NCBI GenBank assembly: GCA_024711295.1
Contig: JANJTB010000039.1
Location: 8,319 to 72,318, forward strand
Direction: 5' to 3'
DNA: 64,000 bases
DNA from: a bacterium
GTDB taxonomy: Bacteria > Bacteroidota > Ignavibacteria > Kapaibacteriales > UBA2268
Made by a program: the position numbers and the translations under genes. This document shows positions 2,679-42,589 of the stretch, piece after piece. Below the pieces are notes generated by a model. The model made no database searches, was not told the origin of the DNA, and saw only the letters and a list, made by a program, of their open reading frames with translations. Each line of letters begins with the position of its first letter. The first letter of the stretch is position 1.

Positions 2679-2694
2679 TCAAGAGGTGTGCAAT

Positions 2695-4056: not shown

Positions 4057-4079
4057 GATTCATCTGAATCATTACAAAG

Positions 4080-4115
4080 TGGGCCCGATTTATCGTCGGG
4101 TCCATTTTTGTTTTT
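4080..4115 (+). terminator. Rho-independent terminator after the SusD-like gene
   Basis: tgggcccga / tcgggtcca stem (9 bp, 1 mismatch), loop tttatcg, followed by tttttgttttt. Lies between convergent genes. Confidence 0.5.
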
Positions 4116-4572: not shown

Positions 4573-4590
4573 ATATATATACTCCTACAA

Positions 4591-5391: not shown

Positions 5392-5661
5392 ACTTAATTT
5401 ATATTTATTTATAACAAAACTTGCTTAACGAAAGATATACAATTTTGTTATCTTTGCTAAAGTTTTTAAATTATGTGACGATAAGAGATTAACAAAAAAT
5501 TCATCAATTTTTAACACTCAATTGCCGACTGAATATTATTTTTACTACATAGCTGTTTTTTTCTTGCTATTAACTTTATTTTTTATATATTTGAATAAGC
5601 ATAGAAAGGTAATGACAAATTGATTTTTTTATTAGGTAGTTAATATTGATAATATTGCTGG

Positions 5662-6735
5662 GTGTTAATATTGAGTAAGTTTTTGTTTTATATATGTTTA
5701 TCGCTTTTATGCTGTTTGACGGTTATTAGCTATGAAGCCAAATCTAATGTAATTGTCAACGAAAAGTCCCACAATTTTGCAGTTTTGTCGGTGAATACCG
5801 ATACTAAATTTTCGAAAGACATTCTGGTTATCTTGCGAGAAAAAAAATCTCCCCCACCTAAAATTAAAACAGACTATAAGTACAATTTTATACATAATCT
5901 TAACAATTTAGATTCATCTGCTATGGCGGGTGATGGCAACTACGTAATTTTCAACAAAGACTCCGAAACAAATATCCGAATCGAGTCACTGAAGCCCGAT
6001 ACCTATTATATCCTTGATACTTACAAAGCTTCGGGCAATTCAAAGATTGCCGAGAAAATTGCTTCGCTCGAGTTCACTACTCTGGCAGAGCAACCTCTGC
6101 GTCAGGTTCAGATGATTCTTTGGGCTGATGTTACAAAAAACAGCTTCAAGCTGTTATCCGAGGGGGCACAAAGCCAAAACGTTATGTATGTGGTAAGCAA
6201 GGGCGAAAACGATTTCGTTCCGGTTGATGCTACATCGTACAAGGCAAATGCCACTTTCGGAAAAGGTTTTGAAGCCGCTAACGGTGTCTATGTTGTTAAG
6301 TCTGATGCTGATACTTCAAAGATTTTTTCCGTAAACGGTTTAGAGCCGGGAACTGCTTATTACGTAAGGGCTTATGCTCTGAATGGTAAAGGGCAGTCTG
6401 TGAATTATCACGAAGAAGTGGTGAAAAAAAGAAATTCTGTTAAAATTATCACAAAACTCGAAACTCCTGTCATCAAAAGCTTTAATTGTCCTCAGACTGG
6501 GGCTTGCAGAGTGGAGTGGGCTAAAGTTAAAGGAGCTGATACTTATATCCTTGAGCTTTCGAATGATGACAAATTCGAAACTCTACACGAAATTTACAAC
6601 GCTCTCGATGTCGGTGATGTGGATTCTTATGTTTTTGACGAATTAGAGAGTAATCGTACTTACTTCATTAGAATCAAAGCGTTAGGCAAAGTTGCCGAAT
6701 CCGACTATTCTAATCATCTAAGTAAAAAACTGTAA
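5662..6735 (+). CDS. Hypothetical exported protein with fibronectin-III-like segments
   Basis: N-terminal hydrophobic signal/anchor. Repeated FN3-like signatures (LKPDTYYILDTYKASGNS; LEPGTAYYVRAYALNGKGQS; RTYFIRIKALGK). No recognisable enzymatic motif. Confidence 0.45.
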   Translation: MLILSKFLFYICLSLLCCLTVISYEAKSNVIVNEKSHNFAVLSVNTDTKFSKDILVILREKKSPPPKIKTDYKYNFIHNLNNLDSSAMAGDGNYVIFNKDSETNIRIESLKPDTYYILDTYKASGNSKIAEKIASLEFTTLAEQPLRQVQMILWADVTKNSFKLLSEGAQSQNVMYVVSKGENDFVPVDATSYKANATFGKGFEAANGVYVVKSDADTSKIFSVNGLEPGTAYYVRAYALNGKGQSVNYHEEVVKKRNSVKIITKLETPVIKSFNCPQTGACRVEWAKVKGADTYILELSNDDKFETLHEIYNALDVGDVDSYVFDELESNRTYFIRIKALGKVAESDYSNHLSKKL

Positions 6736-6905
6736 ATTTTTTTGCTTGTTTATTGTTTTTATTTATGTTATTTTCATAATGACATATTTTGCCGATTTTG
6801 AATTTCAATTTTCAAAATTGCATTTTTTGTTCTTTTAAAAACTTGTTTTGTATATGTGAAAAAACTAAGTAATTACTAATTGTTCTATTTTTTAAAGGTT
6901 TTATT

Positions 6906-24539: not shown

Positions 24540-26417
24540 TCAGGATTTGTATTTATTTTTTTTCACCGCAGGCTCATTAATAGGTAATGTAAAACTAATT
24601 GTTGACCCTTTGTTAACTTCAGTTTCAACCAACATTTTCCCGTTGTTCTTCTCTACAAATTCTTTTACAATCACCATTCCCAATCCTGTACCTTTTTCTC
24701 CCTGCGTTCCTAATCTTGAAACTTTGGATGAAAAATCAAACATTTTATCCAGAGTGTCTTCGCTTATACCAGTTCCGAAGTCAATAACAGATATTTTTAT
24801 TTTTGACATATTGTCTTCTATTACTTTTTCGGAGTCTATAATAATTTTAGAGTCAGAAAAAGAGAATTTGATAGAATTAGATATTAGGTTTCTGAGGATT
24901 GTATATACCATATTAATATCGCAATAAGCAAAATCTCCATCAGGAATATTATTAATAATTTCAATTCTTTTTTTATCCGCAGATAGCTTATTTACTGATA
25001 TGACCTGATTTGATAGGAATTTTATATCATGAATGGCAGGTTCGAAGTCTATCCTGTTACTTTGGTTGCGTGACCAGGTGAGCAAGTTTTCCAAAAGTTC
25101 AAGGATTGAATTAGAAGAATCTGACATAAGTTTAGCAAAATTTTTTCGCTCAAAATCGTCAAGAGTATCATATTCATTTTTTAACAAATCTGCCAAATTT
25201 CTGAAAGCTCCGATAGGATTTTTAAGATCGTGAGCAATAATTGAAAAGAAAGTATCTTTCGACATGTTTATTTGCTCAAGTTTCTCATTTGCTAATTTTT
25301 GAATTTTATTCTTTTTAAAATAGTAGAAGAATGCAAAGAATAAAACAATTAAAATCGATAGGAAAATTACTGTATGACTTAGTATTTTGTTATCTCTTTC
25401 AATGATTTCCTTTTCTTTTCTGCTTATCTCATCTCGTATTTGGCTTTCAGTAATACTCCTGATTTTTTCTTCATCATAGATTTTTTCCATCTGCTGAATT
25501 GAAATCAATATGTAATGAATTGCTGAGTCAGGTTGATTGAAGCGATTTTTAAACAATTCAAACAGAAGGTAGGATGTTGAATAAATAAATGCACTGACTT
25601 TTAGTCTTGATGCTTCATTGTATGATAATCTGGCATAATATAAAGATGAATCGTTCATATTCATTTTATAGTAAACTCTTGCCAAATTTCCCAACACATT
25701 TGCCCTTTCCGAAAATTTATCGTCATTTTCAAAATATTCAAGGCACATTTTGTATGTCGGTATTGATAATGAATCTTGTCCTATGCCCGAATAATAAGTA
25801 CCTAATATATTAAGATTATTTGAGATAACTTCATTAAATCCTATCTTGTAAGCAATTTCGTTAGATAGATTTGCATAGTAAATAACCGAATCGCATTCTT
25901 TGTAAATAAATTTTTCAAGATAAATTGATGATAACCGGTTGTATGTTCGAGACAGTCCTATTTGATGATTCAGTTTATTAAATAAATTTCTGGCTTCAAA
26001 CAGATATTCCAAACCTTTGTCATAGTCTTTAGTTGCTCGGCAAATCTCACCAAGGTATCTTGTAGATTCAGCTTTTAAATCGAGTAAGGACTCGTCTTGC
26101 AGTTCATCTACAAGTTTGATAGACTGTAGTAAATAATATATTGAACGATCATAATCTGCACTTATAGAGTGGTTAATTGCAAGGGAATAGAGGGATAAAA
26201 TTTTTCCTCTGTTAAATTTAATACTTTCAGCAAGATGAAAAGCTTCGTTAGCCAAAACAATGTTCGAGTCTGTTGTCTTGAGTAAGCTTTGCTCAATCAT
26301 CAGATTCACTTTATTGCTATCGTTCGGTAGTTGCTGATAATCAGTATCAGTTTTGATTTCTTTCGGAAAAACGACAGACAGAAATAGTAGTGACAGTATT
26401 TTTAAATAAGTTTTCAA
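24540..26417 (-). CDS. Sensor histidine kinase with a periplasmic TPR-repeat sensor region, one transmembrane segment, and a HisKA + HATPase_c core
   Basis: N-terminal signal, then TPR-like repeats (YYLLQSIKLVD..., YYMKMNM...). TM segment LSHTVIFLSILIVLFFAFFYYF. H-box FFSIIAHDLKNPIGAF. ATPase motifs NLISNSIKFS, DFGTGIS, GTGLGM. Confidence 0.8.
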   Translation of the reverse strand: MKTYLKILSLLFLSVVFPKEIKTDTDYQQLPNDSNKVNLMIEQSLLKTTDSNIVLANEAFHLAESIKFNRGKILSLYSLAINHSISADYDRSIYYLLQSIKLVDELQDESLLDLKAESTRYLGEICRATKDYDKGLEYLFEARNLFNKLNHQIGLSRTYNRLSSIYLEKFIYKECDSVIYYANLSNEIAYKIGFNEVISNNLNILGTYYSGIGQDSLSIPTYKMCLEYFENDDKFSERANVLGNLARVYYKMNMNDSSLYYARLSYNEASRLKVSAFIYSTSYLLFELFKNRFNQPDSAIHYILISIQQMEKIYDEEKIRSITESQIRDEISRKEKEIIERDNKILSHTVIFLSILIVLFFAFFYYFKKNKIQKLANEKLEQINMSKDTFFSIIAHDLKNPIGAFRNLADLLKNEYDTLDDFERKNFAKLMSDSSNSILELLENLLTWSRNQSNRIDFEPAIHDIKFLSNQVISVNKLSADKKRIEIINNIPDGDFAYCDINMVYTILRNLISNSIKFSFSDSKIIIDSEKVIEDNMSKIKISVIDFGTGISEDTLDKMFDFSSKVSRLGTQGEKGTGLGMVIVKEFVEKNNGKMLVETEVNKGSTISFTLPINEPAVKKNKYKS

Positions 26418-26590: not shown

Positions 26591-29500
26591 ATGAAAATTG
26601 CTAAGAAATTTCATTCTTTTGCATTTATAATTTTATTAACGCTGACCTTAGGATGGGTTGAGGGCTACTCACAAGATTTGTTCGGTACATTGTCAAATCT
26701 TCCAACCAGCTATATCACCAAGGGAAAAGTCACTTTATCCGGGGATATTTTTATTACAGTTTGGGGTGGTGGTGTATATAAAAGCGGAAACAATGGTGAC
26801 ACATGGTCTCTTCAAAGTACAGGCCTCAATCACTTCTTGCTTACAGATATTGAATTTATTGGTTCAAGTGAAGCAATCGTTTCAACTATGGGTGGTGGAA
26901 TTTACAAAACTACATCCATGACGAATATTAATTGGAAGCAATCCAATTCAGGTTTAACCAATATGAATGTAAAAACAATCAAAACATACCCTAATGGTTG
27001 GATTATGATTGGCACTTATGGTGGTGGTATCTTCTTATCTAAAGATAAAGGTAATAATTGGATTAATGTTTCACAGGGGCTTTTGTATAGAGATATTACA
27101 TCTATAGAGGTTGCTGATAATGGATGGGTACTAGCAGGAACATACGGTGGTGGGATATTCCAGTCGAGGGACACTACAAAATCATGGACACGCCAAAATT
27201 CCGGTTTAAAGAATTTGTTTATAAATGACATCAAAAGAAGTGATAAAAATTATTTGTATGCTGCTACTAATGGTAGAGGTGTTTACATTTCTGTAAATGA
27301 TGGTATAGTATGGTCCGAACTTGATACTTTTATGACTCGACCTTTGAAAGTTAATCCTGTGCCATTACCGGACTTGAATACTACATGTATCACATTCAAC
27401 AGTTTGAGTTCACCTGTATTTGGCTCAAGATATGGGGGCATTTATGCTGAGGACTTAGTTGAAGATATGACATGGGTACCTACAAATCAACGCGGTATCG
27501 GAGTCAATTCATTAGCTAAATGGAAAGCTTATATGTATTCTTTCTTCCCATTCAGAGATCCATACAAAACAGATGGTAACGGGGAATCATGGACAGCTAT
27601 GAAAGGTGAAACAATAACAAATATGGGTTTAATCCCAAAAATATTTGCTAGAAATGACAGAGAGATAATTGCTTATTATCAAAATTATGTTAAAAAAACT
27701 ACTGATGATGGTGCAACATGGACTGTCTTAGGTGCTACACCAACGCCAATCAATAAAATAGCAATGGATTCCATCGGTAATTATTATGCAGCAACCGAAA
27801 AAGGATTATTTCGATCAGATGGATCATTACAAAGTTGGTCACTCGTGAAATGCCTTGATACAAATGTTTATGATGTAGAAGTATCACCAAGGGGCTCAAT
27901 TTTCATAATTACCAGATATTTTAAAATGCCCGAGCCACCTGCAACACCAATAGATGTTAGGATTGCATGGTTTACTACTGATGGTACTACATGGCAGAAA
28001 GCACCGATTGACTTTGATTTAAGAGAAATTCCTCCTACGGAAGTTTCCATAAATTACAATGCAAATGTTTATATCTCTTCAAACAAAGCAATTTATTATT
28101 CTTTAAATAACGGTGTAAACTGGATTGTATCTCAAACCAAGTTTGACAAAGATGTTAATAGTATTTCATTTTTGAGGGATAATACTGTTATTGTAGGGAC
28201 GGGCGGTGCAGGACTCTGGAAGTCAACTCTTCCGGGTACATTTGAGAGAATATGGTCTTATCCTGCAAATTCTGTTGAAATTGTTCATGTAACAAGAGAT
28301 AATAAAATATTTGCTTCAGGAACAAACATACTAATAGATGATGCTTATTCTTCATATCAGGCAACTTATGCTTCATTTGATACTTTGCTAACATTTGTAA
28401 ACATTAATAATAATTTTAATGCCGAACCTATCACATCTTTTACATCTTCAAAAAGTAGTGATTTTTATATGGCAACAAATTCAGGTATGATTTACCGAGC
28501 TATAAATCCTGCTAACCTGAAAACTCCTATATTACTTACTTTGCCTGATAAAGCTGTTGATATTGGAACAGGTTCAGTATTCTCGTGGACTGCCGACCCA
28601 AGAGCTGATTTATATCAGTTGGAAATTTCTTATAATGATGATTTTTCATATGTTTGGGAATCAGTAACACTAAGTGATACTACATATCAAAATACCATCG
28701 TTCCTGCTTCATACCATAAGTATTATTGGAGAGTACGTTCAAAAAATCATTCAGCAGTTAGTAACTGGTCGCCAGTTAGAACTTTTATATCAAAACTTGA
28801 GACACCAAAACTACACTTACCTGCTGATAAGTCTTTAAACATTCCTGTGTATGCAGTTTTGAATTGGTATTTGGTCGAAGGTTCTCAAAAGTATAAAATT
28901 CAGATTTCAGAGAAATCAGATTTTTCTTCCATAAGCTTTGAATGGGAATCAAATGATACTTCAACAACTTCTCCGCTTTTAAAAGGTAGAACGAAGTATT
29001 ATTGGAGAGTTATGGCATTGAATAATGATGTTACCAGTAATTGGTCAGGTTCATGGTCATTTGAGACTGTTTTTGGTCCGCCATTATTACTTAGTCCGCC
29101 AGATAATTCATTTGGTAATGAAATTTATACAATAATGACATGGGAAAAAGCTTCCGAAGTTGATGAGTATGATATTCAAATTGCAAGTGACACAGAATTT
29201 AAAAATATTGTTTATGAAAAGAACGGTATTCTTTCTTTGAGTACTAACCTGATTGAACCTCTTGAATTCAATAAGTTATACTATTGGAGAGTAAGGTCTA
29301 GAAATGGTCAGGTTACAAGTGAATGGTCCCTGATTTCGAAATTTTTAACAGCATATTCTTTCGTCACTTTAGAATCACCTCCTCATGAAAGCTTAAACAT
29401 ACCTGTGAATACTGAGTTTACTTGGAAAGAGCATGAATCAGTGAATAGCTTTGAAATTGAAATTTCTAAAGTGCATAATTTCTCTAATAATGTTGATTTA

Positions 29501-30469
29501 TCTTACGTAAAAGACATCCAAAATTATACTACCGATAAGTTAGAACCCTACCAGGAGTATTTTTGGAGAGTACGTGCTAAATCTGAAGAAAATTTTGGAT
29601 TATGGAACCAACCATTTAAATTTAAAACCAGAGTTGCAAAAATTGGTCTGAGATTCCCTGATAACAACACTGAAAACCATCCGGTATCAATTGGATTTAT
29701 ATGGTATCAAACAAAAGGGGCAATTACTTATCACCTCCAGATTGCCAATGATTCGGAGTTTAATGATTTGATTTTTAGTCAAGATACAATCAGGGGCACT
29801 ACGCACATTTTTTCACAGCTTAATCCGGGTTCAGATTATTTTTGGAGAGTACGAGCTGTTTCCCCCGAAGGTGTAGGTGAGTGGTCAGAGGTATGGACTT
29901 TTTCCACAGGTAGTAATATTCCTGTATTGTTAGCACCGCTTAATGAAAAAGCCGATGTTGTAATTCCTGTCAAATTTGAATGGGTATCAGTTGCAGGCGA
30001 TGTTAAGTATGAACTTCAAGTTTCTGAGTTAACAACTTTTACAAATTATGCCTACAAAAAGGATGACTTAACCGAAAGCCAGGTAACAATTAGTTCGTTG
30101 GAGTTTCCAAAAGTGTATTATTGGCGTGTACGAGCATTATCAAAAGATGGCACTTCACCATGGTCGCAAGTTTGGAGATTTGGAACTGTTGACCCTGTAT
30201 CTGTAAGCGAAATTATCAATTTAAATCCTGCTAATTTGTATCCAAACCCTGCTACTGATATGTTGAATGTAATTTTAGGTGAACTCGAAAGCCAAGATAT
30301 AAAAGTAAGCATCTCAGATATAAATGGTAATGAATTGTTAAATTATAATACTTTTCTGAACGGTCATTTGTTGAAAGTTGATTGTTCGAAGCTAAACTCA
30401 GGCATTTATCACATAAATATAATCAGTAGTAAAAAAATGTATATTTGTGAGTTTATAATAGTTAGATAA
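26591..30469 (+). CDS. Large (1292 aa) secreted protein with an N-terminal BNR/Asp-box beta-propeller, eight tandem FN3-like domains sharing a YYWRVRA motif, and a T9SS C-terminal sorting domain
   Basis: Signal peptide. Repeated GGG(I/V)Y(K/L)S plus S-x-D/N-x-G-x-(T/S)-W BNR motifs (SGNNGDTWS, SKDKGNNWI, TTDDGATWT, SLNNGVNWI...). Eight ~95-aa units each ending (Y)YWRVR(A/S)..N..S.WS..W.F.T. C-terminus LYPNPATDMLNVIL...GIYHINIIS...FIIVR is CTD-like. Confidence 0.75.
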   Translation: MKIAKKFHSFAFIILLTLTLGWVEGYSQDLFGTLSNLPTSYITKGKVTLSGDIFITVWGGGVYKSGNNGDTWSLQSTGLNHFLLTDIEFIGSSEAIVSTMGGGIYKTTSMTNINWKQSNSGLTNMNVKTIKTYPNGWIMIGTYGGGIFLSKDKGNNWINVSQGLLYRDITSIEVADNGWVLAGTYGGGIFQSRDTTKSWTRQNSGLKNLFINDIKRSDKNYLYAATNGRGVYISVNDGIVWSELDTFMTRPLKVNPVPLPDLNTTCITFNSLSSPVFGSRYGGIYAEDLVEDMTWVPTNQRGIGVNSLAKWKAYMYSFFPFRDPYKTDGNGESWTAMKGETITNMGLIPKIFARNDREIIAYYQNYVKKTTDDGATWTVLGATPTPINKIAMDSIGNYYAATEKGLFRSDGSLQSWSLVKCLDTNVYDVEVSPRGSIFIITRYFKMPEPPATPIDVRIAWFTTDGTTWQKAPIDFDLREIPPTEVSINYNANVYISSNKAIYYSLNNGVNWIVSQTKFDKDVNSISFLRDNTVIVGTGGAGLWKSTLPGTFERIWSYPANSVEIVHVTRDNKIFASGTNILIDDAYSSYQATYASFDTLLTFVNINNNFNAEPITSFTSSKSSDFYMATNSGMIYRAINPANLKTPILLTLPDKAVDIGTGSVFSWTADPRADLYQLEISYNDDFSYVWESVTLSDTTYQNTIVPASYHKYYWRVRSKNHSAVSNWSPVRTFISKLETPKLHLPADKSLNIPVYAVLNWYLVEGSQKYKIQISEKSDFSSISFEWESNDTSTTSPLLKGRTKYYWRVMALNNDVTSNWSGSWSFETVFGPPLLLSPPDNSFGNEIYTIMTWEKASEVDEYDIQIASDTEFKNIVYEKNGILSLSTNLIEPLEFNKLYYWRVRSRNGQVTSEWSLISKFLTAYSFVTLESPPHESLNIPVNTEFTWKEHESVNSFEIEISKVHNFSNNVDLSYVKDIQNYTTDKLEPYQEYFWRVRAKSEENFGLWNQPFKFKTRVAKIGLRFPDNNTENHPVSIGFIWYQTKGAITYHLQIANDSEFNDLIFSQDTIRGTTHIFSQLNPGSDYFWRVRAVSPEGVGEWSEVWTFSTGSNIPVLLAPLNEKADVVIPVKFEWVSVAGDVKYELQVSELTTFTNYAYKKDDLTESQVTISSLEFPKVYYWRVRALSKDGTSPWSQVWRFGTVDPVSVSEIINLNPANLYPNPATDMLNVILGELESQDIKVSISDINGNELLNYNTFLNGHLLKVDCSKLNSGIYHINIISSKKMYICEFIIVR

Positions 30470-30627
30470 CTTCCTGAAAAATATTTGAAGAATATCAAAA
30501 GTGTTGTATTTGTAAAGGTACAACACTTTTTTTATAAAGAACTGTACATCTTTGGTAACAAAAAGCTGAAAATATTGTTTTTCTTGTAAAAAAGTGTTAA
30601 ATTAGTGAATTATTGTGGGGAATAGAT

Positions 30628-33600
30628 ATGAAAAGAATTCTTACTTTTTTAATTATATTTTTTATTCAGATTACAGTATCCAACTCTCAGTATTGGAAAG
30701 AGATTAAATCTATTCCACCACCGTTTAATACTAATTATTGGCTTGATGTCTTTTTTCATCCCTCAAACTCCAGTTTTGGGTGGGTTTGCGGATTCAATGG
30801 TATGGTTATCCGAACAACCGATGGTGGTAACTCCTGGTTGGGATCTACAGTTCCGAATGCCTATCATCTTGAGCATATACATTTTCCGACTCTTACAGTA
30901 GGATATACTTCCGGACCTGAAGGTATTTTCAAGACAACAAATGGTGGACAAAATTGGTTCGATATAACACCGGATCTTACCAAAAACTATTGGGGGTGCT
31001 ATTTTATTGATGCTAATATCGGGTTAGTTTTGGCAGAAGGATGCAACGGTACCCAAAATTTCTACAAGACTACTAATGGTGGTACAAATTGGACAAATTT
31101 TCCGGGAAGCGAGGCAAATAGTGGCTTGACAGATCTGATTTTGTATGATGCAAACGGTCTGGGATATGCAGTATCAAGCGGGAAAATCTGGCAGACAAAT
31201 AATGGAGGTAGTTCCTGGGCAGTAATTGCTTCATCAGGTACTAATGTTTGGAATGAAGAAATAGCTCATTCAGGCTCATCTTTTTTAGTACCTTATGCCG
31301 GAACAACCTGCAGCGGCCAGGGCGGAGACGGTGGTATGAGATTCTCAAATGATATGGGTGCTAATTGGAGATCTTTTCAAACAGGTTTTTCTATGTTCGG
31401 GACTTACCTTATTGATGGATCAAAAGGATGGGCTTGTGGCGATAACAGAGGTGTTTATTACACATCTGACGCAGGACAGAGCTGGGTTTTACGAAATTGC
31501 GGAATCCCGGATGAAACTAATCTTGATGATGTTTGGTTTGTAAACGAAAATTTAGGTTATGTAGTAGGGCATGGAGTTTATAGACTCTCCGGTGCTGAAC
31601 AATTTGTTTCCAAAGATACACTGAAGTTTGACAATCTTTGCAAAAATGAAAATTTAACTGATAGTTTACTTATATCAAATTTATCATTTTCGCAAGCAAA
31701 TGTAGAACTTGCACTAGTAAACAATACAGGCAATCATTTCAGATTGATAAGCCCAAATCCAAATATCGTTCTAAATTCCTGCGAAGAGAAAGTCGTCACT
31801 ATTATGTTTGCTCCAACTGACGAAAATTCTCATGAAGCAAAGCTAAGGATAACATTTAACCCTGGTACAGGAAACGAAAAAATATATTTTATTGAATTGA
31901 TTGGAATTGTAAGAAAATCTACAGCATTCCCCCAGGATACTCTGATTGTTGTAAATAACCTAAATTGTAGTGTCACAAGAGTTATAAATTTACCCTGGTT
32001 TAGCGAAACATTAGGTGAGCAAATAATTGGCGTTGATAATTTAAATAAATCTTCAAACATTCTCCTAACAAGCCCCATACCACTTAAGTTGATTCCACCA
32101 GTTACAAATACAGCATTTACGATTACTCTTATTGATACAGGCTGGTATGAGGCAAGATATAAATTTACACTTTTCCCTTGTAACCGCGATACTTTTGTTA
32201 CTGTAAGGGCTTATGGTGCATCTCCAATTATTTCTCATAGAGCAAAACAGCAGTTAAATTCAACATGCCGTTCAATTATTTACGACACAATAAGAGTATT
32301 TAACACCGGTAATGATGTCCTGAATATATCTGATGTTTGGTTAAGTCCTGAAATTAATGAGTTCGAAATTATTGGATGGGTAAATGTTAGTTTGCCCATG
32401 AAAATTGATAGAGGTGGTTTTGAAGACCTCATAATAAGTTATCGACCAGTAACATCTGGTACACATATCACCCGACTTGCTATCGCCAATAATGATTCGA
32501 CAAGAATTTTTGGTTTCAAAAATCCTTATTACATTGATTTGAGAGGAGTTTCATCAATTACTAATCTCACGGACACGATTAGAATTGATTTTGGCAATTT
32601 ATGTATTGGTGAAACTAAATCAGATGTCAAAATAATCAGGAATACAGGTAATTTAGACGCAGAAGTAAATATTGAAAGTACTCCTGAAGAATTGAAACTT
32701 ACTATAAGTGATATTAATTCAATTATCAAGAAAAATGATTTAACAAGATTGACTGCTGTTTTTACGGCATCTAAGGTTGGAAAATTTAACTACGAAATCC
32801 AAATGAGTTCAAAACCTTGTGATGAAAAGACACTAATACTAATATCGGCTAATGTCATAAAAAATGATCTGGAGGTTACGCCTGATAAGATTTCAGGATT
32901 AGTCAAGGTTGGTGAAAGTATCGAAAAGGTCGTCAGAGTTCAGTCATTGAGTAGTTTTGATGTAAATATTAAGTCTGTAACCATTACTCCAGGCAGCAGT
33001 GATTGGCAATATTCCGTAAAACCCTTGTTGCCAATGGTTTTACTTTCCGGACAGGGTACTGATTTTACAATGACTTTTAATCCAACCAATGCAGGAAAAT
33101 TTCAGGGTAAAGTTGTTATAGAAACTGAAGGGCTTTGTAATGAGACTTATTATGTTGATATTGATTTATCCAGTTTCAGTAAATTTGTAGATATCAACCC
33201 GACAAGTATAGACTATGGAAATTTTTTCTGCGAATATAATTATCAAGATAAAGAAATTAAAATCAGCAACTTGGGATTTTCTCAAGACACTATTTCTAAA
33301 ATTGAGTTAATTCAGGATTCTGATGTGTTCGAAATAATAAATTTGCCTGAAATTCCTTTATTAATCGATGCAAAAGATGAATTTACCCTTCAGGTTAGAT
33401 TTAAGAAGCAGGATTTAGAGGGAATATTTACAGGAAATATTATAATTGAAACAATTGGTGATGATGGCCAGAATTTTATTATTCCTCTAAAGGCAAATTA
33501 TTCAAAATCAATTATTAATCCCGAATCACACTCGATTAATATGGGCGAATTTGAGTTATGCTCTGAGCCTAGGTCAGTAGAATTTAAGTTCAAGAACTTA

Positions 33601-34848
33601 GGGCTTCTTGGCGATAAGATTATCCTCAAGTCCAACAATAATTCTGATTTATTTAGGCTGCTACAAACTGAGGCTTCAATAGCACCTGATGAAGAAGTAA
33701 TATTTAAAGTTACATTTGACCCAATATTTGCAAATAACACAGGGAATTACAAGTGTGAAATTACTTTCATTACTGAAACATGCTTTCGGGAACTCAAGAT
33801 ATTTTTTGAAGCAGACATAATTAAGTCTAAGCTTTCGGTATTACCTGATAAAGTTGATTTTGGATCAAAATGGAGTGAAGAAACCATTACAAAAAATATC
33901 AAACTGATTCACAACGGTGGACGAGAAATTACCATAAATGATGTTCTATTAGATAATAGTACTGATTACAAAATTATTGACACACCTATAGATAAGAAGC
34001 TAAAAAATGGTGAATTTATTGATTTTTCTGTTTCTTATATTTCGACTGACACAAATAATCACCAAGGTGAAATTATTGTTCATTATAGTTCCGATTGCCC
34101 GGACTCTGCAAAAATAGAATTGAATGGTTCGGTGCGTTCTGAGAGATATGATATTATCTTAAGTATTGACAGATATGAAGCACTTGCAGGTGATTTGATT
34201 GATATTTATGTTAAATTATCTGGTGGAAGTGATAGGTTAATTCCTGATGAAATTAGGCTTGAAATCAGTTTCGATAAGCAACTTTTTTACCCCAATAAAG
34301 TGTCTATTCTCGACAATGGAGTATTCTCTGACTTTTCTTACTCTTACTCAAGTGGAGTTATTTATGGGTTGATAAGCAAAGCAGCAGCTTCAAAAATATT
34401 ACAAAAGTCAGCTGAAATCGTTAAAATTCAAGGTATAGTTTTAGCTTCAATACCTGATTCAACCTTATTGAAAATATCGAAATTTGATGTTCTAAGTGAT
34501 AAGATTATTGATATTCAGAAGAAAGATGGTTTACTTAAAATTATTGACTATTGTATCGGAACTACTCAACTAAATCAGTTCAGGTATATTCCAAAATTCA
34601 CTGTATCATCCGGCTCTATCGCAAATAATGGTAAATTGAGCTATAGTATTCTATCCAGTACTGACTTAGATATATTTATTAATATCAAAGACCTTAATGG
34701 TAATGTTTGTGTAAATAATATTATTAAATCTTATACTTCTAATAATAGTTATGAACTTGATTTTAGCCTATTACCTTCTGGATTGTATTTTGTTGAATTC
34801 GAGTCACAATATCAAAAAGAAACCCTAAAGATTATAAACATAAAGTGA
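30628..34848 (+). CDS. Large (≈1406 aa from the ATG at 30628) secreted protein with an N-terminal BNR/Ycf48-like beta-propeller, ~9 choice-of-anchor-D-type Ig-like domains, and a probable T9SS CTD
   Basis: Signal MKRILTFLIIFFIQITVS. BNR motifs TTDGGNSW, TTNGGQNW, TTNGGTNW, TNNGGSSW, SDAGQSW. Repeated (I/V)DFGN..(I/C)GE...V.I.N.GN..L.I Ig-like units (e.g. IDFGNLCIGETKSDVKIIRNTGNLDAEVNI). C-terminal ...GLYFVEFESQYQKETLKIINIK beta-sandwich tail. Confidence 0.75.
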   Translation: MKRILTFLIIFFIQITVSNSQYWKEIKSIPPPFNTNYWLDVFFHPSNSSFGWVCGFNGMVIRTTDGGNSWLGSTVPNAYHLEHIHFPTLTVGYTSGPEGIFKTTNGGQNWFDITPDLTKNYWGCYFIDANIGLVLAEGCNGTQNFYKTTNGGTNWTNFPGSEANSGLTDLILYDANGLGYAVSSGKIWQTNNGGSSWAVIASSGTNVWNEEIAHSGSSFLVPYAGTTCSGQGGDGGMRFSNDMGANWRSFQTGFSMFGTYLIDGSKGWACGDNRGVYYTSDAGQSWVLRNCGIPDETNLDDVWFVNENLGYVVGHGVYRLSGAEQFVSKDTLKFDNLCKNENLTDSLLISNLSFSQANVELALVNNTGNHFRLISPNPNIVLNSCEEKVVTIMFAPTDENSHEAKLRITFNPGTGNEKIYFIELIGIVRKSTAFPQDTLIVVNNLNCSVTRVINLPWFSETLGEQIIGVDNLNKSSNILLTSPIPLKLIPPVTNTAFTITLIDTGWYEARYKFTLFPCNRDTFVTVRAYGASPIISHRAKQQLNSTCRSIIYDTIRVFNTGNDVLNISDVWLSPEINEFEIIGWVNVSLPMKIDRGGFEDLIISYRPVTSGTHITRLAIANNDSTRIFGFKNPYYIDLRGVSSITNLTDTIRIDFGNLCIGETKSDVKIIRNTGNLDAEVNIESTPEELKLTISDINSIIKKNDLTRLTAVFTASKVGKFNYEIQMSSKPCDEKTLILISANVIKNDLEVTPDKISGLVKVGESIEKVVRVQSLSSFDVNIKSVTITPGSSDWQYSVKPLLPMVLLSGQGTDFTMTFNPTNAGKFQGKVVIETEGLCNETYYVDIDLSSFSKFVDINPTSIDYGNFFCEYNYQDKEIKISNLGFSQDTISKIELIQDSDVFEIINLPEIPLLIDAKDEFTLQVRFKKQDLEGIFTGNIIIETIGDDGQNFIIPLKANYSKSIINPESHSINMGEFELCSEPRSVEFKFKNLGLLGDKIILKSNNNSDLFRLLQTEASIAPDEEVIFKVTFDPIFANNTGNYKCEITFITETCFRELKIFFEADIIKSKLSVLPDKVDFGSKWSEETITKNIKLIHNGGREITINDVLLDNSTDYKIIDTPIDKKLKNGEFIDFSVSYISTDTNNHQGEIIVHYSSDCPDSAKIELNGSVRSERYDIILSIDRYEALAGDLIDIYVKLSGGSDRLIPDEIRLEISFDKQLFYPNKVSILDNGVFSDFSYSYSSGVIYGLISKAAASKILQKSAEIVKIQGIVLASIPDSTLLKISKFDVLSDKIIDIQKKDGLLKIIDYCIGTTQLNQFRYIPKFTVSSGSIANNGKLSYSILSSTDLDIFINIKDLNGNVCVNNIIKSYTSNNSYELDFSLLPSGLYFVEFESQYQKETLKIINIK

Positions 34849-34855
34849 GATAAAA

Positions 34856-35455
34856 TTGTCCGTAGAATTTTGGGATGAAAGATTTGCTGCGAATGAATAT
34901 ATTTATGGAAAAAGCCCAAATAGTTACTTCAAATCAAAATTAGATAAGTTAAATTCAGGCAAGATTTTGCTGCCTGCCGAAGGAGAAGGTAGAAATGCTG
35001 TATATGCTGCTATTAATGGCTGGGATGTTTATTGTTTTGACCAAAGCATATCGGCAATGGAAAAAGCCGAAATTCTTGCCTCCGAAAACATGGTTAACAT
35101 TAACTACTTGATTGCAGATGCAGACGAAGTATATTACAAACATGATTTTGATGTCGTAGCATTCATTTTTTCTCATTTTCCAAATCACAATACATTACGT
35201 AAAATTTCAAATTTCACAAAAGAAAATGGTCATGTGATTTTTGAGTGTTTTTCCAAAAAACAAATTAAGTACCAGTTGGAGTTCAACTCCGGTGGTCCTA
35301 ACAATATTGATTTACTTTTCTCTTTAAACGATGTTGGTAAAATATTCAGAGATTTCGAAATTCTTGAGTTGTCAGAAGTGGAAGTCAATCTGAACGAAGG
35401 CAATTATCATAATGGTCCGGCATCGGTAATCAGATTTAATGGAGTTAAAAAATAA
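34856..35455 (+). CDS. Class-I SAM-dependent methyltransferase (TTG start as called in the ORF track)
   Basis: Rossmann motif I region ILLPAEGEGRNAVYAA and downstream acidic motif II (VYCFDQS), consistent with small-molecule methyltransferases of TPMT/TehB type. Substrate not assignable. Confidence 0.6.
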   Translation: MSVEFWDERFAANEYIYGKSPNSYFKSKLDKLNSGKILLPAEGEGRNAVYAAINGWDVYCFDQSISAMEKAEILASENMVNINYLIADADEVYYKHDFDVVAFIFSHFPNHNTLRKISNFTKENGHVIFECFSKKQIKYQLEFNSGGPNNIDLLFSLNDVGKIFRDFEILELSEVEVNLNEGNYHNGPASVIRFNGVKK

Positions 35456-35570
35456 CACTTGAAAATATATTCATATTTTCATATATTTTGTTTTAATTCG
35501 TCTTATAATTGAATTACAAATAAATTCACAAGAATAATTGTTTATAGAAAAATTTAAAAAGGAGATTAAA

Positions 35571-36512
35571 ATGCCTATTCATCATCAAGTTCTAATCATT
35601 GGAACAGGTCCTGCAGGATTTACCGCTGCACTTTATGCCAGCCGTGCAAACCTTGATGTAGCTATTTTTGAAGGTCAGCAGCCAGGTGGACAATTGACAA
35701 TTACTACCGAAGTTGAAAATTATCCAGGGTTTGAGCATGGTATTCAAGGTCCGGAAATGATGGAAGTTTTTAGAAAACAAGCTCAAAGATTCGGAGCTAA
35801 GTCAATTTACGAAACTATAACAAAGGTTGATTTTTCTGAGAGACCTTTTAAACTTTGGAGTGATAACAATGAATATACTGCTGATTCAGTAATTATTGCT
35901 ACCGGTGCTACAGCAAAGCTTCTTGATGTACCAAGCATGAAAACTTACTGGGGTTCAGGAATCTCTGCTTGTGCTACTTGTGATGGCTTCTTTTTCAGAG
36001 GTGAAAAGATATTTGTTATAGGTGGGGGTGACACAGCCATGGAAGAAGCAAATTATCTGACACATTTTGGGGAAAGTGTTACATTGGTGCATCGAAGAGA
36101 TGAATTCCGTGCTTCTAGAATTATGGTTGAAAGAACGAAGAAGAATCCTAAAGTTAAAATTATTACAAACGCTGTTGTTGACGAATTTATTGGTGAAGAA
36201 AAAATGGGTATTAAAAAAATGACCCATATTAAATTGAAAGATACCGTAACAGGTGAAACGACAATTCATGAAGCAGGTGGGTGTTTTATTGCAATTGGCC
36301 ATACACCTTCTTCAAAACTTTTTGAAGGTATGCTTGACATGGATGAAAACGGCTACTTAATTACAAAAGGTAAATCAACATATACAAATATTCCCGGTGT
36401 TTTTGCTTGTGGTGATGTTCAGGATCATGTTTACAGACAAGCAGTAACAGCTGCTGGATCTGGTTGTGCTGCAGCTATAGACGCAGAAAGATGGCTTGCT
36501 GAGCAAGAATAA
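35571..36512 (+). CDS. trxB: Thioredoxin-disulfide reductase
   Basis: FAD motif VLIIGTGPAGFTAALYA. Redox-active CATCDG. NADPH motif IGGGDTAMEEANYL. Perfect AAGGAG Shine-Dalgarno 7 nt before the ATG at 35571 (MPIHH). Confidence 0.9.
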   Translation: MPIHHQVLIIGTGPAGFTAALYASRANLDVAIFEGQQPGGQLTITTEVENYPGFEHGIQGPEMMEVFRKQAQRFGAKSIYETITKVDFSERPFKLWSDNNEYTADSVIIATGATAKLLDVPSMKTYWGSGISACATCDGFFFRGEKIFVIGGGDTAMEEANYLTHFGESVTLVHRRDEFRASRIMVERTKKNPKVKIITNAVVDEFIGEEKMGIKKMTHIKLKDTVTGETTIHEAGGCFIAIGHTPSSKLFEGMLDMDENGYLITKGKSTYTNIPGVFACGDVQDHVYRQAVTAAGSGCAAAIDAERWLAEQE

Positions 36513-38939: not shown

Positions 38940-39199
38940 AATGAAAAGCTCCGGAAAATCTGAAAAATGTTACTTGATACTAAATAATATTATAACTTAG
39001 ACAAATAAATTTACTTTTAATTGCATTTAAATTTATTTTATTTACATAGGAAATTGAATAATTGTAAAAAGCAGATGTAATAAAGCACAAAAGAAATATA
39101 ATCTTTATAAAAAAGTTAATTATTTCGTAATTTTGTAATTCAGATTGAATTAAAAAAAAGAAAATAATTAATTGATATATTTAGAATTGGAGTTTGTTT

Positions 39200-42100
39200 A
39201 TGAAGTATTTGCTTACAATACTGTTATTAGGTGTTATTACATTAAGCTCATTATTATCTGCACCCAGATATTCAGAAAATAATAAAAATACAATTGGAAA
39301 GGACTATCTATACGAAATCAACATTCCCTCAAAGACAGTAAATGGTAGATATATTCCTGCCAAGAAAGTTCAAATCGAAAGGGTTGATGCTAATTTCGTT
39401 GAAAAAAATATTATTGAGGTAAAATTTAAACAGCATGTCCAGCACAAGAATAACAAGTTTGATGAACCTACTTTGCAAAGTGCATTCAACTCATTAAGTA
39501 TTTCAAGCATTACAACTCCATACTCAAACTATATCAACGATGAGAATCTTTTATCTAATAATAAAATTGGTATCGACAGAATATACCAAATTCGTTATTC
39601 AGATAATATTGACCCTTATGATGCTTGTGCCAATTTAATGAAAAATTCAGATGTAGAATACGCAACGCCTGTTTTTAAAAGACAAACGTATTTTACACCG
39701 AATGACGCTTGGTATTCACTCCAATATCATTTACCAAAGATTAGTATGCCCGAAGCATGGGATATTACCCAAGGTGATGGTAGTGTAGTAATCGCAATTG
39801 TTGATAGCGGAACTGATATTGAGCACGAAGATTTGAAAGAAAATATATGGACTAATCCGGGAGAAATACCAAATAATGGTATTGATGATGATAAGAATGG
39901 CAAAATTGATGATGTTAACGGTTGGGATTTAATTGGCTCAATTACAGCACAACAACTTGCAAGTGGAGCATATAAGGAAGATAATAATCCTATTAATATG
40001 ATTGGTACTCACGGCACGCATACTGCGGGCTGTGCTTCAGCATCAACAAACAATTCTAAAGGTGTTGCTGCTCCTGGTTTTAAAATAAAATTATTACCGG
40101 TTAAATGCGCATCCGATGCATATAATTCTCCAGGTATATCAAGAGGTTACGAAGGTATATTGTATGCTGCCAGAACTGGTGCTAAAGTAATAAACTGCAG
40201 TTGGGGGGGACCCGGTTGGAGTCCTGTTGAAGAAGATATCGTAAATCAAGCCATTGCAATGGGCAGTCTGATTGTTACAGCTTCCGGCAACTCTGCAAAA
40301 AATATTGATGTTGATCCTGATTATCCCGCTGCTTTCAAAGGTGTACTAAGTGTGGGTTCTTCCGGTAATACAGATAGATATTCAAATTTTTCCAGTTATG
40401 GAAATTTGGTGAGAGTTTATGCGCCAGGTGAAGGTATTTGGTCAACACTTCCTGGTAATAAATACGAAGCTCAATCAGGTACTTCTATGGCATCTCCTGT
40501 TGCTGCCGGTGTTGCAGCATTATTGATGACTTTGCACAAAGACTGGACTACCGAGCAGATTATTCATCAGCTTAGAGGAACTTCTGATAATGTATTGGTT
40601 GCTGCCAATCCAAATCTTCGACCACTTTATTTTGGAAGATTAAATGCTTTTAAAGCATTACAATATAATTATGTACAGGGTAAGACAATTGCCGGCATAG
40701 GACTTGAGAATATTGAAGTTAAGGGTAATGCTAATGCTTTGACAAATTACGAATTGAATGATGTCACAATAAGCCTTAAGAATTATCTTGCCCGTGACAA
40801 CAGTATCAAAGTCCGTTTAATTCCTATGGATAATTTTATTGAATTCGATAAGAGTATTTATGATGTTGGTATGATGGATACTTTTGATGAAAAGGAACTA
40901 TCTGTAAAAGCCAGATTGTTAGAAAATAATCCATGGTACAAAGGCACAGCAGATGTATTGCTCGAAATTACAGGTACAGACTACATAAATTATGAAATTG
41001 CAAAAATTAATGTACAGGTTCCATCTAATAACAAGCTGACTCTTCTAACAAGTATACCTTCAGCTTATGGTATTCAATGGCACAGCAATGCTTTTTTAGG
41101 TAACGATATTGCCTATATTGTTGGTGCAGGCCAATTTGTAGGTGGGGTTGCTGTTAAAATGGGTAAAGCAAGTGCTAACGTAATTCAGATTAATCAACAA
41201 CCTGTGTATTGCATGTATGCTTTTAACGAGAGCAACTTAATAGCAGGCGATGGACCAACAAATGGTATGGCAAGAGTACACTATTCCAATAATGGTGGAC
41301 AAACCTGGTCAACCAAACCTGTGAACAATATTACAGGATTTGTAAACTCCTTCAATTTTTTCAACAATTTCGAAGGGATTTTATTAGGTGATCCTTTAGG
41401 TACTTCATGGGGTGTCGGAAAAACAAATGATGGCGGCAATACCTGGACTTTGGCATCTGGTTTGCCTGCTCCAATTGGTACTGAGACTGGATTGGTCGGT
41501 TCAGTCACCCAAAGGGGCAATACGGTTTGGTTTGGTACTACTGCCGGAAGAATATTCAAAACCAACGATAAAGGAGAAACCTGGGACCAGGTAACTGTTG
41601 CAAGCGGTGGGGTTGTTTCAAGTCTGTCGTTTAATGAGTCCTTAGCTGCATGCCTTTATTCACCAACTAATACTCAGGGTGCAAACAGGTTATTAGCTGT
41701 TTCGACTGATGGTGGTAAAACTTGGAAAACTTCAGTATATAATTTTACTGCAAACTCACAGATTCCACTAAATGTTTATGTTATTGAAGATTCTAAATCT
41801 ATAGTTGTTCAGCTATATAGCGGATATGTAATAGCTTCGGATAATGAAGGTGTTAGTTGGTATCCTGTGTTGAGCGAAAAGAGAAATTACTATACTTTTG
41901 CTGCAACAAATCAAATTGGCAACAAAGTCAGTATTTATTCCGGTGGTACTGATATGACAAGATTAGATTATACATTTACTCCATCAGTTATAAAAAAAGC
42001 AATAAGTTTTGTTGGTGGAAGTCTTGCTATATTTGACTCTGTAGCTGTAAATTCTACTAAAGATATGACAGTAGAAATCAGGAATGTCGGAAATATGGAT

Positions 42101-42589
42101 GTAGCTATATCCAATATCAACATAATACCTGACGAAGGCACTGATGTAAATGAATTCAGAGTTTTATTACCATCACCTACTTCGGTAATTCCAGGGCAAA
42201 ACACAAATTTAAGACTTAGATTTACTCCAAAATCATCAGGTTTGAAAACAGCCAGACTTACAATAACCTCGGATGCAGAAATAAATCAAATGCATTTAGA
42301 TTTAATCGGTTATGGTGCAACAGGTACATCTATTGATGATTTAAATGCTATGGACAAAATCATTTTAGCTCCAAATCCTGCAGACAAGTTTATTACTGTA
42401 TTTTCAGACCAGGAATTAAATAATTCTGTGATAAAAATTTATGATATACTTGGAAATGAAATACTAAAATTAGAAAATGTAGGACAAAATTCTTTGATTA
42501 ACTTACAGAATTTTGCTCCGGGTGTTTATAATTTAATTTTAAATGATGGCAAGAATATTTATCAAAAACAGTTTATTATAAACAGATAA
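39200..42589 (+). CDS. S8-family subtilisin-like serine peptidase fused to a C-terminal BNR beta-propeller, one Ig-like (choice-of-anchor-D-type) domain and a T9SS C-terminal sorting domain
   Basis: Catalytic triad regions AIVDSGTD (Asp), HGTHTAG (His), GTSMASP (Ser). BNR motifs SNNGGQTW, TNDGGNTW, TNDKGETW, STDGGKTW. Ig-like LAIFDSVAVNSTKDMTVEIRNVGNMDVAIS. CTD ILAPNPADKFITVF...GVYNLILNDGKN...FIINR. TGGAG Shine-Dalgarno before the ATG at 39200. Confidence 0.85.
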   Translation: MKYLLTILLLGVITLSSLLSAPRYSENNKNTIGKDYLYEINIPSKTVNGRYIPAKKVQIERVDANFVEKNIIEVKFKQHVQHKNNKFDEPTLQSAFNSLSISSITTPYSNYINDENLLSNNKIGIDRIYQIRYSDNIDPYDACANLMKNSDVEYATPVFKRQTYFTPNDAWYSLQYHLPKISMPEAWDITQGDGSVVIAIVDSGTDIEHEDLKENIWTNPGEIPNNGIDDDKNGKIDDVNGWDLIGSITAQQLASGAYKEDNNPINMIGTHGTHTAGCASASTNNSKGVAAPGFKIKLLPVKCASDAYNSPGISRGYEGILYAARTGAKVINCSWGGPGWSPVEEDIVNQAIAMGSLIVTASGNSAKNIDVDPDYPAAFKGVLSVGSSGNTDRYSNFSSYGNLVRVYAPGEGIWSTLPGNKYEAQSGTSMASPVAAGVAALLMTLHKDWTTEQIIHQLRGTSDNVLVAANPNLRPLYFGRLNAFKALQYNYVQGKTIAGIGLENIEVKGNANALTNYELNDVTISLKNYLARDNSIKVRLIPMDNFIEFDKSIYDVGMMDTFDEKELSVKARLLENNPWYKGTADVLLEITGTDYINYEIAKINVQVPSNNKLTLLTSIPSAYGIQWHSNAFLGNDIAYIVGAGQFVGGVAVKMGKASANVIQINQQPVYCMYAFNESNLIAGDGPTNGMARVHYSNNGGQTWSTKPVNNITGFVNSFNFFNNFEGILLGDPLGTSWGVGKTNDGGNTWTLASGLPAPIGTETGLVGSVTQRGNTVWFGTTAGRIFKTNDKGETWDQVTVASGGVVSSLSFNESLAACLYSPTNTQGANRLLAVSTDGGKTWKTSVYNFTANSQIPLNVYVIEDSKSIVVQLYSGYVIASDNEGVSWYPVLSEKRNYYTFAATNQIGNKVSIYSGGTDMTRLDYTFTPSVIKKAISFVGGSLAIFDSVAVNSTKDMTVEIRNVGNMDVAISNINIIPDEGTDVNEFRVLLPSPTSVIPGQNTNLRLRFTPKSSGLKTARLTITSDAEINQMHLDLIGYGATGTSIDDLNAMDKIILAPNPADKFITVFSDQELNNSVIKIYDILGNEILKLENVGQNSLINLQNFAPGVYNLILNDGKNIYQKQFIINR

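Follow-up and report, generated by a model that had tools for sequence, protein, structure and literature searches.

Two adjacent propeller genes of a Kapaibacteriales bacterium belong to separate, stable families of predicted type IX secretion surface proteins

Introduction

Two large genes that are adjacent, lie on the same strand and are alike in overall layout raise the question of whether they are paralogues that have exchanged parts or unrelated genes that came to lie side by side. The genes, here called A and B, are found in a stretch of 64,000 nucleotides (64 kb, hereafter the window) from a bacterium of the Bacteroidota (Ignavibacteria; Kapaibacteriales; UBA2268), namely positions 8,319 to 72,318 on the forward strand of contig JANJTB010000039.1 in assembly GCA_024711295.1. 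Coordinates below are those of the window unless another locus is named. A preliminary description reported two adjacent open reading frames (ORFs) of 1292 and 1411 amino acids (aa), saw in them a shared N-terminal propeller with swapped stalks, and proposed a modular, recombining family of surface propeller proteins, possibly glycosidase-like. The two ORFs are present as reported. It appears, nevertheless, that the pair only looks like shuffled paralogues: A and B each belong to a stable, uncharacterised family of their own, and both families consist of predicted type IX secretion system (T9SS) surface proteins.

Gene A occupies 26591–30469 (+) and encodes 1292 aa from an ATG start. The mechanical ORF of gene B extends over 30613–34848 (+) and has 1411 aa from a TTG at 30613. 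The ATG at 30628 is the more likely true start, since the orthologues open with MKK or MKN...FLI (MKKYFTFLI...), which matches gene B at that position. Gene B is thus given as 30628–34848 (+), with 1406 aa, and its residues are numbered from this ATG; Pfam coordinates are one higher. Protein A consists of a signal peptide, a double 7-bladed Asp-box propeller, six fibronectin type III (FN3)-like domains and a type-A T9SS C-terminal domain (CTD). Protein B consists of a signal peptide, a Ycf48-like 7-bladed propeller, eight immunoglobulin (Ig)-like domains, a cohesin-like domain and a type-A T9SS CTD.

Relationship between genes A and B

The N-terminal heads of A and B have little in common beyond their fold. 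BLASTP aligns them at 23% identity over 182 aa (E 9e-8), with several short out-of-register matches in addition. When the propellers are compared one by one, identity is 22–27% over partial and out-of-register stretches, against the value of more than 40% that had been set beforehand as the test of a common origin. The heads also differ in the number of blades (14 in A and 7 in B) and in the profile family that they resemble (GH74 for A and Ycf48 for B). By these comparisons A and B are related only at the level of fold class and their propellers are no shared module; the proposal of a common N-terminal module with swapped stalks is thus not borne out.

Each gene has its own full-length, collinear orthologues, described in the next section, and these are found apart from each other. 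No B orthologue lies within 10 kb at six loci that carry an A orthologue; the six B loci examined likewise have no A orthologue next to B. At the closest B locus (L083, GCA_029974985.1), the gene upstream of the B orthologue encodes an aminotransferase, not A. In the genome that is nearest by CTP synthase (75%), the pyrG-FKBP-nucleotidyltransferase synteny is kept and neither A nor B is nearby. Because collinear full-length orthologues of both genes exist and are never adjacent at the loci tested, the A-B pair is judged to be a chance juxtaposition of two separate, stable families.

A search for DNA tandem repeats across A and B returned only trivial A+T-rich repeats. The FN3 units of A are 24–36% identical among themselves, each being nearer to its own positional orthologue, and the Ig units of B are 16–34% identical. 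As the units are thus 16–36% identical, without repeats at the DNA level, the stalk repeats of both genes are considered old.

The two genes are probably carried on separate transcripts, since an A+U-rich hairpin followed by a U-run, similar to an intrinsic terminator, lies between them at 30497–30533 (+). The hairpin has a minimum free energy of -17.4 kcal/mol (z = -4.67), and none of 200 shuffles was equally stable. A consensus terminator scanner overlooked it on account of the A+U-rich stem. A scan for sigma-70 promoters was uninformative (64 matches, 46 expected).

Downstream of B, beginning 7 nucleotides after it, are genes for a TehB-like S-adenosylmethionine-dependent methyltransferase and a thioredoxin reductase (34856–36512, +). 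The L083 locus has the same two genes in the same order (10420–12089), with 54% identity for the methyltransferase and 85% for TrxB. The B-methyltransferase-TrxB order is not kept in L081, L084 or L165–L167. A conserved operon partner was accordingly dropped as a candidate, the order being found only in this one close relative.

Gene families

The A family came to light through alignments. With the sequence of A alone, no relative was found in a scan of GTDB genomes or in a scan of JGI metagenomes; an alignment-based rescan of the JGI metagenomes recovered orthologues that are full-length and collinear, with 51% (L085), 38% (L086 and L087) and 31% (L088/L089) identity. Their ORFs are 1293–1309 aa long and carry the FN3 motifs at matching positions. 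We regard propeller 1 as the most conserved part of A (61, 48, 44 and 41% identity to the orthologues); propeller 2 is below it (51, 31, 31 and 21%). The propeller region by itself has a much wider distribution, with 465 proteins at E <= 1e-5; among the 120 listed, many are about 700 aa long with a T9SS tail.

A histidine kinase gene with tetratricopeptide repeats adjoins A upstream in divergent orientation (24540–26417, −). In L085, an ORF of 517 aa (585–2138, +) that is 30% identical to the C-terminal 240 aa of this kinase immediately precedes the A orthologue and shares its strand. The presence of a kinase-like ORF beside A in both loci may be a coincidence.

The B family emerged from the cohesin-like region. 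A word-index homologue search with this region of B returned nothing, and an exhaustive HMMER search with the same region later found 73 cluster representatives. About 50 of the 73 are proteins of 1384–1476 aa with the match at the same position. These align with B from end to end at 25–49% identity, all but one. The family alignment used here comprises 51 sequences, that is B and 50 other clusters. Mean pairwise identity within it is 49% for the propeller, 22–30% for the Ig units, 25% for the cohesin-like domain and 21% for the CTD. Its members include one entitled 'choice-of-anchor D domain-containing protein [Candidatus Kapabacteria bacterium]', some entitled 'photosystem II stability/assembly factor-like' and some without a name. 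In the literature on Ycf48/T9SS/BNR proteins, 'choice-of-anchor D' and Kapabacteria T9SS, no account of the A or B family was found.

In one metagenomic locus (L081, ENA ERZ21831265; 2823–7006), the B orthologue is divided into three consecutive ORFs of the same strand (580 + 486 + 342 = 1408 aa), either by frameshift errors in the assembly or because it is a pseudogene. Upstream of this split orthologue, the opposite strand encodes a T9SS-tailed GH18 chitinase.

Those relatives of A and B that have a name belong to metagenome-assembled genomes (MAGs) of Kapabacteria, Ignavibacteria and Bacteroidota; NCBI treats Kapaibacteriota as a synonym of Bacteroidota. The CTP synthase of the window is 74–75% identical to that of two uncultured bacteria, one of them of the Bacteroidetes/Chlorobi group, and 60–65% identical to that of Ignavibacteria. 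The host is an uncultured member of the FCB group with a probable affinity to Kapabacteria/Ignavibacteria. T9SS-tailed proteins of about 400 and 700 aa, annotated as 'YCF48-related' or 'photosystem II stability/assembly factor-like', are common in Bacteroidota and Ignavibacteria MAGs and combine the same propeller families with a CTD; among the candidates scored, at least 394 and at least 465 propeller relatives pass the E-value threshold. In most of these shorter proteins the CTD follows directly on the propeller, where A and B have long stalks in between. None of these proteins is characterised.

Architecture of protein A

The N-termini of both proteins have, by inspection, the features of Sec signal peptides, as the preliminary description had proposed: a basic n-region, a hydrophobic h-region and Q at the +1 position. 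In A, the predicted signal peptide is aa 1–27 (26591–26671, +), MKIAKKFHSFAFIILLTLTLGWVEGYS, with the likely cleavage between GYS and QD. In B, it is aa 1–20 (30628–30687, +), MKRILTFLIIFFIQITVSNS, with the likely cleavage between SNS and QYW; the B family consensus at the predicted site is ...QYWEK. AlphaFold2 (AF2) models a helix at aa 3–26 of A and also one at the N-terminus of B. The Q at +1 agrees with the Q-rule of Bacteroidetes (PMC5837995).

The Asp-boxes on which the propeller assignment had been based are real: A has 5 and B has 7, where 0.25 are expected and 2000 shuffles gave at most 3. The description of one N-terminal propeller in each protein is correct for B, whose propeller is single; A has two. 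The AF2 model of the N-terminal 640 aa of A, built with an alignment of 41 sequences, shows two 7-bladed propellers with good model scores (predicted local distance difference test, pLDDT, 85; predicted TM-score, pTM, 0.83). Propeller 1 is placed by the strand pattern of the model at about aa 35–330 (26693–27580, +) and propeller 2 at about aa 345–640 (27623–28510, +), giving a modelled head of 14 blades over about 600 aa.

Foldseek finds several double propellers similar to this model. The top match is the GH74 xyloglucanase NkGH74 (6p2l; E 3e-21, TMq 0.57), and the second-best is PorZ of Porphyromonas gingivalis (5m11; E 8e-20, TMq 0.60); sensor domains of Bacteroides hybrid two-component systems (HTCS) also match, the E-values of these and PorZ being 8e-20 to 5e-19. 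Unrelated WD40 double propellers match as well, with TMq 0.64–0.66, and the fold match of A is therefore generic. PorZ and the HTCS sensors BT4663 and BT4673 resemble A in that a double 7-bladed propeller is followed by a beta-sandwich, which in PorZ is a T9SS CTD. PorZ binds anionic lipopolysaccharide (A-LPS), and BT4663 binds saccharides, heparin disaccharides being among the glycans bound in this group (PMC5121618, PMC8545088). A differs from both in its FN3 stalk and in that no significant sequence similarity was seen; the TM-scores of the HTCS sensors are low (0.36), and these sensors, unlike A, are inner-membrane dimers.

The stalk of A was described as eight FN3 domains. Iteration with a self hidden Markov model (HMM) and the positions of the Y-Y/F-W-R-V motif give six, over 28523–30205 (+), with units at aa 651–732, 744–824, 836–918, 930–1011, 1022–1104 and 1116–1197. 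Six such motifs were never reached in shuffles. In Pfam, the array matches Ig_Rha78A_N (PF25788; 78 bits, cut-off 27.4) and fn3 (PF00041; 61.8 bits, cut-off 25). The protein ends in a type-A CTD at aa 1216–1292 (30236–30466, +), which is recognised by both PF18962 (Por_Secre_tail; 49.5 bits, cut-off 27) and TIGR04183 (34.6 bits, cut-off 23).

Architecture of protein B

The propeller of B (aa 21–327; 30688–31608, +) is a 7-bladed Asp-box propeller of the Ycf48 type. The AF2 model has seven blades over about 300 aa (pLDDT 93.8, pTM 0.90), and its top 12 Foldseek matches are all Ycf48 (TMt ~0.72). It matches PF14870 (PSII_BNR) with 54.9 bits (cut-off 27), the Pfam family to which Ycf48/HCF136 (2xbg, 5oj5, 8am5_S) belongs, and the B-family profile matches Ycf48 with E 2.7e-40.

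B nevertheless differs from Ycf48 in several ways: identity is about 19–20%, B is not a lipoprotein, its propeller is fused to a stalk of 1000 aa, and its lineage presumably lacks photosystem II. Synechocystis Ycf48 binds D1 through an Arg patch formed by R180, R196, R215, R219, R220 and R237 (PMC10403576). None of the six is found in B, which has D169, G185, A213, S217, S218 and G233 at these positions in a phmmer alignment to 8am5_S of moderate accuracy. As the Arg patch is missing, B appears to have the Ycf48 fold without the Ycf48 binding surface. At least 85% of B-family sequences keep three acidic residues, D169, E210 and E211, which are predicted to form an acidic patch on the face that corresponds to the Arg patch of Ycf48. 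A true Ycf48 was rejected for the same loss of the patch and because B scores 58.3 bits against the Ycf48 equivalog model NF010237, under its cut-off of 326.

The next part, aa 328–1158 (31609–34101, +), comprises eight Ig-like domains of the choice-of-anchor-D/ASH/HYDIN type. The array matches the choice-of-anchor D model NF012200 in two stretches (113.9 bits, cut-off 45) and also PF22544, PF22073, PF15780 and PF07610, which are Ig models of the ASH/HYDIN/Cep192 type. Five units are evident by self-HMM, and all eight are linked by hhalign of per-unit family profiles; the weakest, Ig2, is linked to Ig4 with 94% probability. About nine Ig domains had been counted before, and a cohesin-like domain had been missed (aa 1159–1333, core about 1176–1306; 34102–34626, +), which has 175 aa and is unrelated to the Ig units by hhalign. 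With these revisions, the fold classes of the preliminary description (BNR/Ycf48-like, FN3, choice-of-anchor-D Ig and T9SS tail) stand.

The cohesin assignment depends on the family profile. B alone matches Pfam Cohesin (PF00963) with E 0.006 and 17.2 bits, below the cut-off of 24.1, and 10 of 29 B-family members match this model (best E 4.9e-6). The B-family profile over aa 1176–1306 matches cellulosomal type-I cohesins over their full length (1g1k, E 1.6e-5; 2vn5, 2.2e-5; 3ul4, 1.2e-4). Besides its sub-threshold score, B differs from these cohesins in being a Gram-negative T9SS protein and not a scaffoldin. No dockerin-like Ca-binding motif was found in the six frames of the 64-kb window.

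The type-A CTD of B occupies aa 1334–1406 (34627–34845, +). It scores 24.9 bits with TIGR04183, over the cut-off of 23, its G-x-Y motif (G1385, Y1387) is conserved in the family, and B orthologues carry precomputed PF18962 matches. A signal peptide together with a CTD of about 75 aa (TIGR04183/PF18962) and a G-x-Y motif is also the layout of type-A T9SS cargo such as the gingipain RgpB, from which A and B differ in that their heads are, as far as their motifs indicate, non-enzymatic propellers.

The B family has many conserved Cys residues. Those of the propeller are C54, C139, C228 and C291, the last three being invariant. Those of the stalk are regularly spaced (C338, C385, C518, C547, C659, C731, C837, C868, C978, C1052, C1157 and C1309), and in the family alignment they lie as pairs within or between Ig units. 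The pattern points to disulfide bonds, one of which may clasp the first blade to the last; the predicted pairs in the propeller are C54-C291 and C139-C228.

Proposed function

It is reasoned that A and B are T9SS-exported, surface-anchored proteins that carry non-catalytic ligand-binding heads on stalks, a reading to which we give a probability of roughly 60%. This reading is favoured because catalytic and chaperone signatures are missing from the heads, proteins with the double-propeller fold of A bind glycans, conservation in B is about two times stronger in the head than in the stalk, and the length of the B family is held. The length of 1384–1476 aa in 51 B-family sequences is what would be expected if a functional head were carried by a spacer whose length is fixed. 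In addition, a related propeller in the window is attached to a catalytic S8 protease, the usual arrangement for accessory binding modules.

The following mechanism is envisaged. A and B would be exported by Sec and then recognised by the T9SS through the type-A CTD. The CTD would be cleaved and the new C-terminus joined to surface lipopolysaccharide, by analogy with Porphyromonas (PMC8545088). With the protein so attached, the stalk would have its C-terminal end at the outer membrane, and the N-terminal propeller would be held at the tip, tens of nanometres away, by six FN3 domains in A and by eight Ig domains and one cohesin-like domain in B. In the double propeller of A, which resembles those of GH74, PorZ and HTCS sensors, a glycan or other polymer would most plausibly be bound in the cleft between the propellers. 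The Ycf48-like head of B, with conserved acidic residues in place of the Arg patch, would bind something other than the Ycf48 ligand, and the membrane-proximal cohesin-like domain may hold a partner protein. Glycan binding by the heads is possible.

Several points weigh against this proposal. Secretion, CTD cleavage and surface location of A and B are predictions made from sequence. In other species, part of the type-A CTD cargo is released and not anchored, and to our knowledge anchoring to A-LPS has been demonstrated only in a few Bacteroidota. The CTD of B is marginal in Pfam (PF18962, 25.6 bits; cut-off 27). The T9SS machinery (SprA/Sov, PorU, PorV, PorK-N) was not found in the 64-kb window; a T9SS is likely to be present in the host genome because at least six T9SS-tailed ORFs, at least four of them besides A and B, occur in the window. 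At the A and B loci examined, no conserved gene neighbour turned up that would point to a function, nor did any ligand or partner. Finally, the stalk of A is not clearly less conserved than its head: FN3-5 is 62, 58 and 51% identical to the orthologues, against 51, 31 and 31% for propeller 2. Since conservation is spread more evenly in A than in B, the stalk of A may be more than a spacer.

Alternative explanations

Of the competing explanations, the one that survives best, unlikely as it is, holds that A and B are structural or motility filaments of the surface, such as gliding adhesins of the SprB/RemA kind or an S-layer-like coat. Both proteins are large, repetitive T9SS cargo with long stalks, and the fixed length of the B family would suit a layer of defined height. 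However, the CTDs of A and B are of type A (TIGR04183), whereas SprB-type adhesins have type-B CTDs (PMC9143113), no gld or spr genes were found in the window, and the head of B is far more conserved than its stalk, which speaks for a specific interaction of the tip.

More doubtful still is the idea that A, and possibly B, is an active surface glycoside hydrolase that degrades polysaccharide, either a GH74-like xyloglucanase or a sialidase-like enzyme. The similarity to GH74 is considerable at first sight. GH74 enzymes (Clostridium thermocellum Xgh74A, 2cn2/2cn3; NkGH74, 6p2l) consist of two tandem 7-bladed Asp-box propellers like the head of A, the two-propeller cleft is seen in the model of A (aa 1–650; TMq 0.57), and GH74 is the best match of the A-family profile in the PDB (E 9e-37). 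A alone, however, has no PDB match at E <= 0.01, the alignments between the profile and GH74 follow the blade repeat and do not keep register, and WD40 double propellers fit the model about equally well. A further difference from GH74 is that A has six FN3 domains and a T9SS tail.

The catalytic motifs argue in the same direction. GH74 enzymes carry a D-[IVQ]-G-G motif in each propeller (present in 6p2o, 6p2m and 2cn2), seen in the alignments as RTDIGGAYRW and GDIGGF; the equivalent strands of A read WGGGVY, YGGGIF and RYGGIY. At the level of the motif, D-x-G-G is absent from A, B, the third propeller gene of the window and five full-length A orthologues, as well as from 38 of 40 wider A relatives. 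In the wider A family, only G, S and W occur among the residues that reach 90% conservation or are invariant, and most of them are at Asp-box positions. The weak NCBIfam match to 'F510_1955 family glycosylhydrolase' reaches 61 bits, far under the cut-off of 175. A SusC/SusD pair in the window, some 22 kb away, could be taken to favour polysaccharide degradation. The single 7-bladed propeller of B fits neither GH74, which has two propellers, nor GH33. GH33 sialidases have a six-bladed propeller with an Arg triad and a Tyr/Glu nucleophile pair; a sialidase was rejected for A and B because their propellers are 7-bladed and sialidases are only weak profile matches (E 1e-5 to 1e-3). The glycosidase-like option of the preliminary description is thus disfavoured.

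It is very improbable that A and B arose as tandem paralogues with a common N-terminal module and exchanged stalks, in a family that recombines actively. The two genes are adjacent on one strand and have the same overall layout, the window and related loci show the stalk cassettes joined to other heads, and lists of homologues pair each propeller type with varied downstream domains. Reuse of heads and stalks in the lineage is the portion of the earlier proposal that stands. Recombination between A and B themselves is contradicted by the divergence of the propellers, the collinear orthologues with a fixed number of domains, the lack of A-B adjacency at the six A loci and the six B loci (including L083, where B-methyltransferase-TrxB occurs without A), the age of the repeats with each FN3 unit nearest to its positional orthologue, the lack of DNA tandem repeats and the terminator between the genes.

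Just as improbable is that A is no cargo and instead a PorZ-like attachment component of the T9SS that delivers anionic lipopolysaccharide to the sortase: PorZ is the second-best Foldseek match and also consists of two 7-bladed propellers and a CTD, but it lacks the six FN3 domains that separate propellers and CTD in A, is not among the 60 listed of the 67 PDB matches of the A-family profile, and has a fold so unspecific that hundreds of proteins share it and unrelated WD40 double propellers score equally well.

Genomic context and reuse of domains

The genes that flank A and B are housekeeping genes, and other T9SS-tailed ORFs are found farther away. The third propeller gene (39194–42589, +; 1131 aa) encodes an S8 subtilase (aa 197–465), a BNR/Sortilin-like propeller at about aa 690–930, one ASH/HYDIN Ig domain and a Por tail. 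The propeller has five Asp-boxes and shares 24–41% identity with those of A and B over stretches of 44–208 aa. On the opposite strand are a protein with an unassigned N-terminus of 300 aa followed by about three B-type ASH/HYDIN/choice-of-anchor-D Ig units (57393–59600, −) and a protein with an Omp28 domain and one B-type Ig unit (59665–62010, −), both T9SS-tailed. In a related locus (L166, JGI 3300077522), a protein of 1462 aa (3304–7692, −) is encoded beside the B orthologue in divergent orientation. It has the zinc-metalloprotease motif HEMFH, at least 10 sites of the YYWRV-type FN3 motif and a T9SS tail. It was considered as an A-type gene and rejected because its head is a metalloprotease. 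The stalk cassette of A, FN3 array plus CTD, thus serves an enzyme head too. Because S8 protease, Omp28-like and metalloprotease heads all sit on Ig+CTD or FN3+CTD cassettes, heads and stalk cassettes appear to have been reused in this lineage over deep evolutionary time.

Another T9SS-tailed ORF (6906–15203, +) has 2765 aa, with a PF18962 match of 34 bits. The other ~2600 aa contain only a weak fn3 match, and the product would be a giant surface protein without recognisable domains. It is preceded by a gene for an FN3 protein of 357 aa (5662–6735). A SusC-like TonB-dependent receptor, truncated at the start of the window, and a SusD-like lipoprotein are encoded at 36–4056 (+), about 22 kb upstream of A. 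The pair is of the polysaccharide-utilisation type and has no evident link to A or B.

Significance

The result is a careful annotation and not a discovery. Multidomain T9SS surface proteins are a known kind, and the two families had no name. What it provides are domain maps of A (2 x 7 blades and six FN3 domains) and B (7 blades, eight Ig domains and a cohesin-like domain), together with negative results on catalysis that should stop the annotation of such proteins as 'glycosyl hydrolase' or 'photosystem II assembly factor'.

A more far-reaching and tentative idea, which we consider unlikely, is that the B family forms a surface organelle of defined height throughout the Kapabacteria-like Bacteroidota. 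Its membrane-proximal cohesin would dock partners, making it a T9SS-anchored Gram-negative cohesin scaffold, and its tip propeller would recognise a conserved cationic or protein ligand through the acidic patch. If so, B would have put to a new use the fold that serves cyanobacteria as a chaperone for the photosystem II protein D1. If the B family is indeed a fixed-length, cohesin-bearing spike, it would offer a handle on surface organisation and on the binding of substrates or partners in these poorly known relatives of the Bacteroidota.

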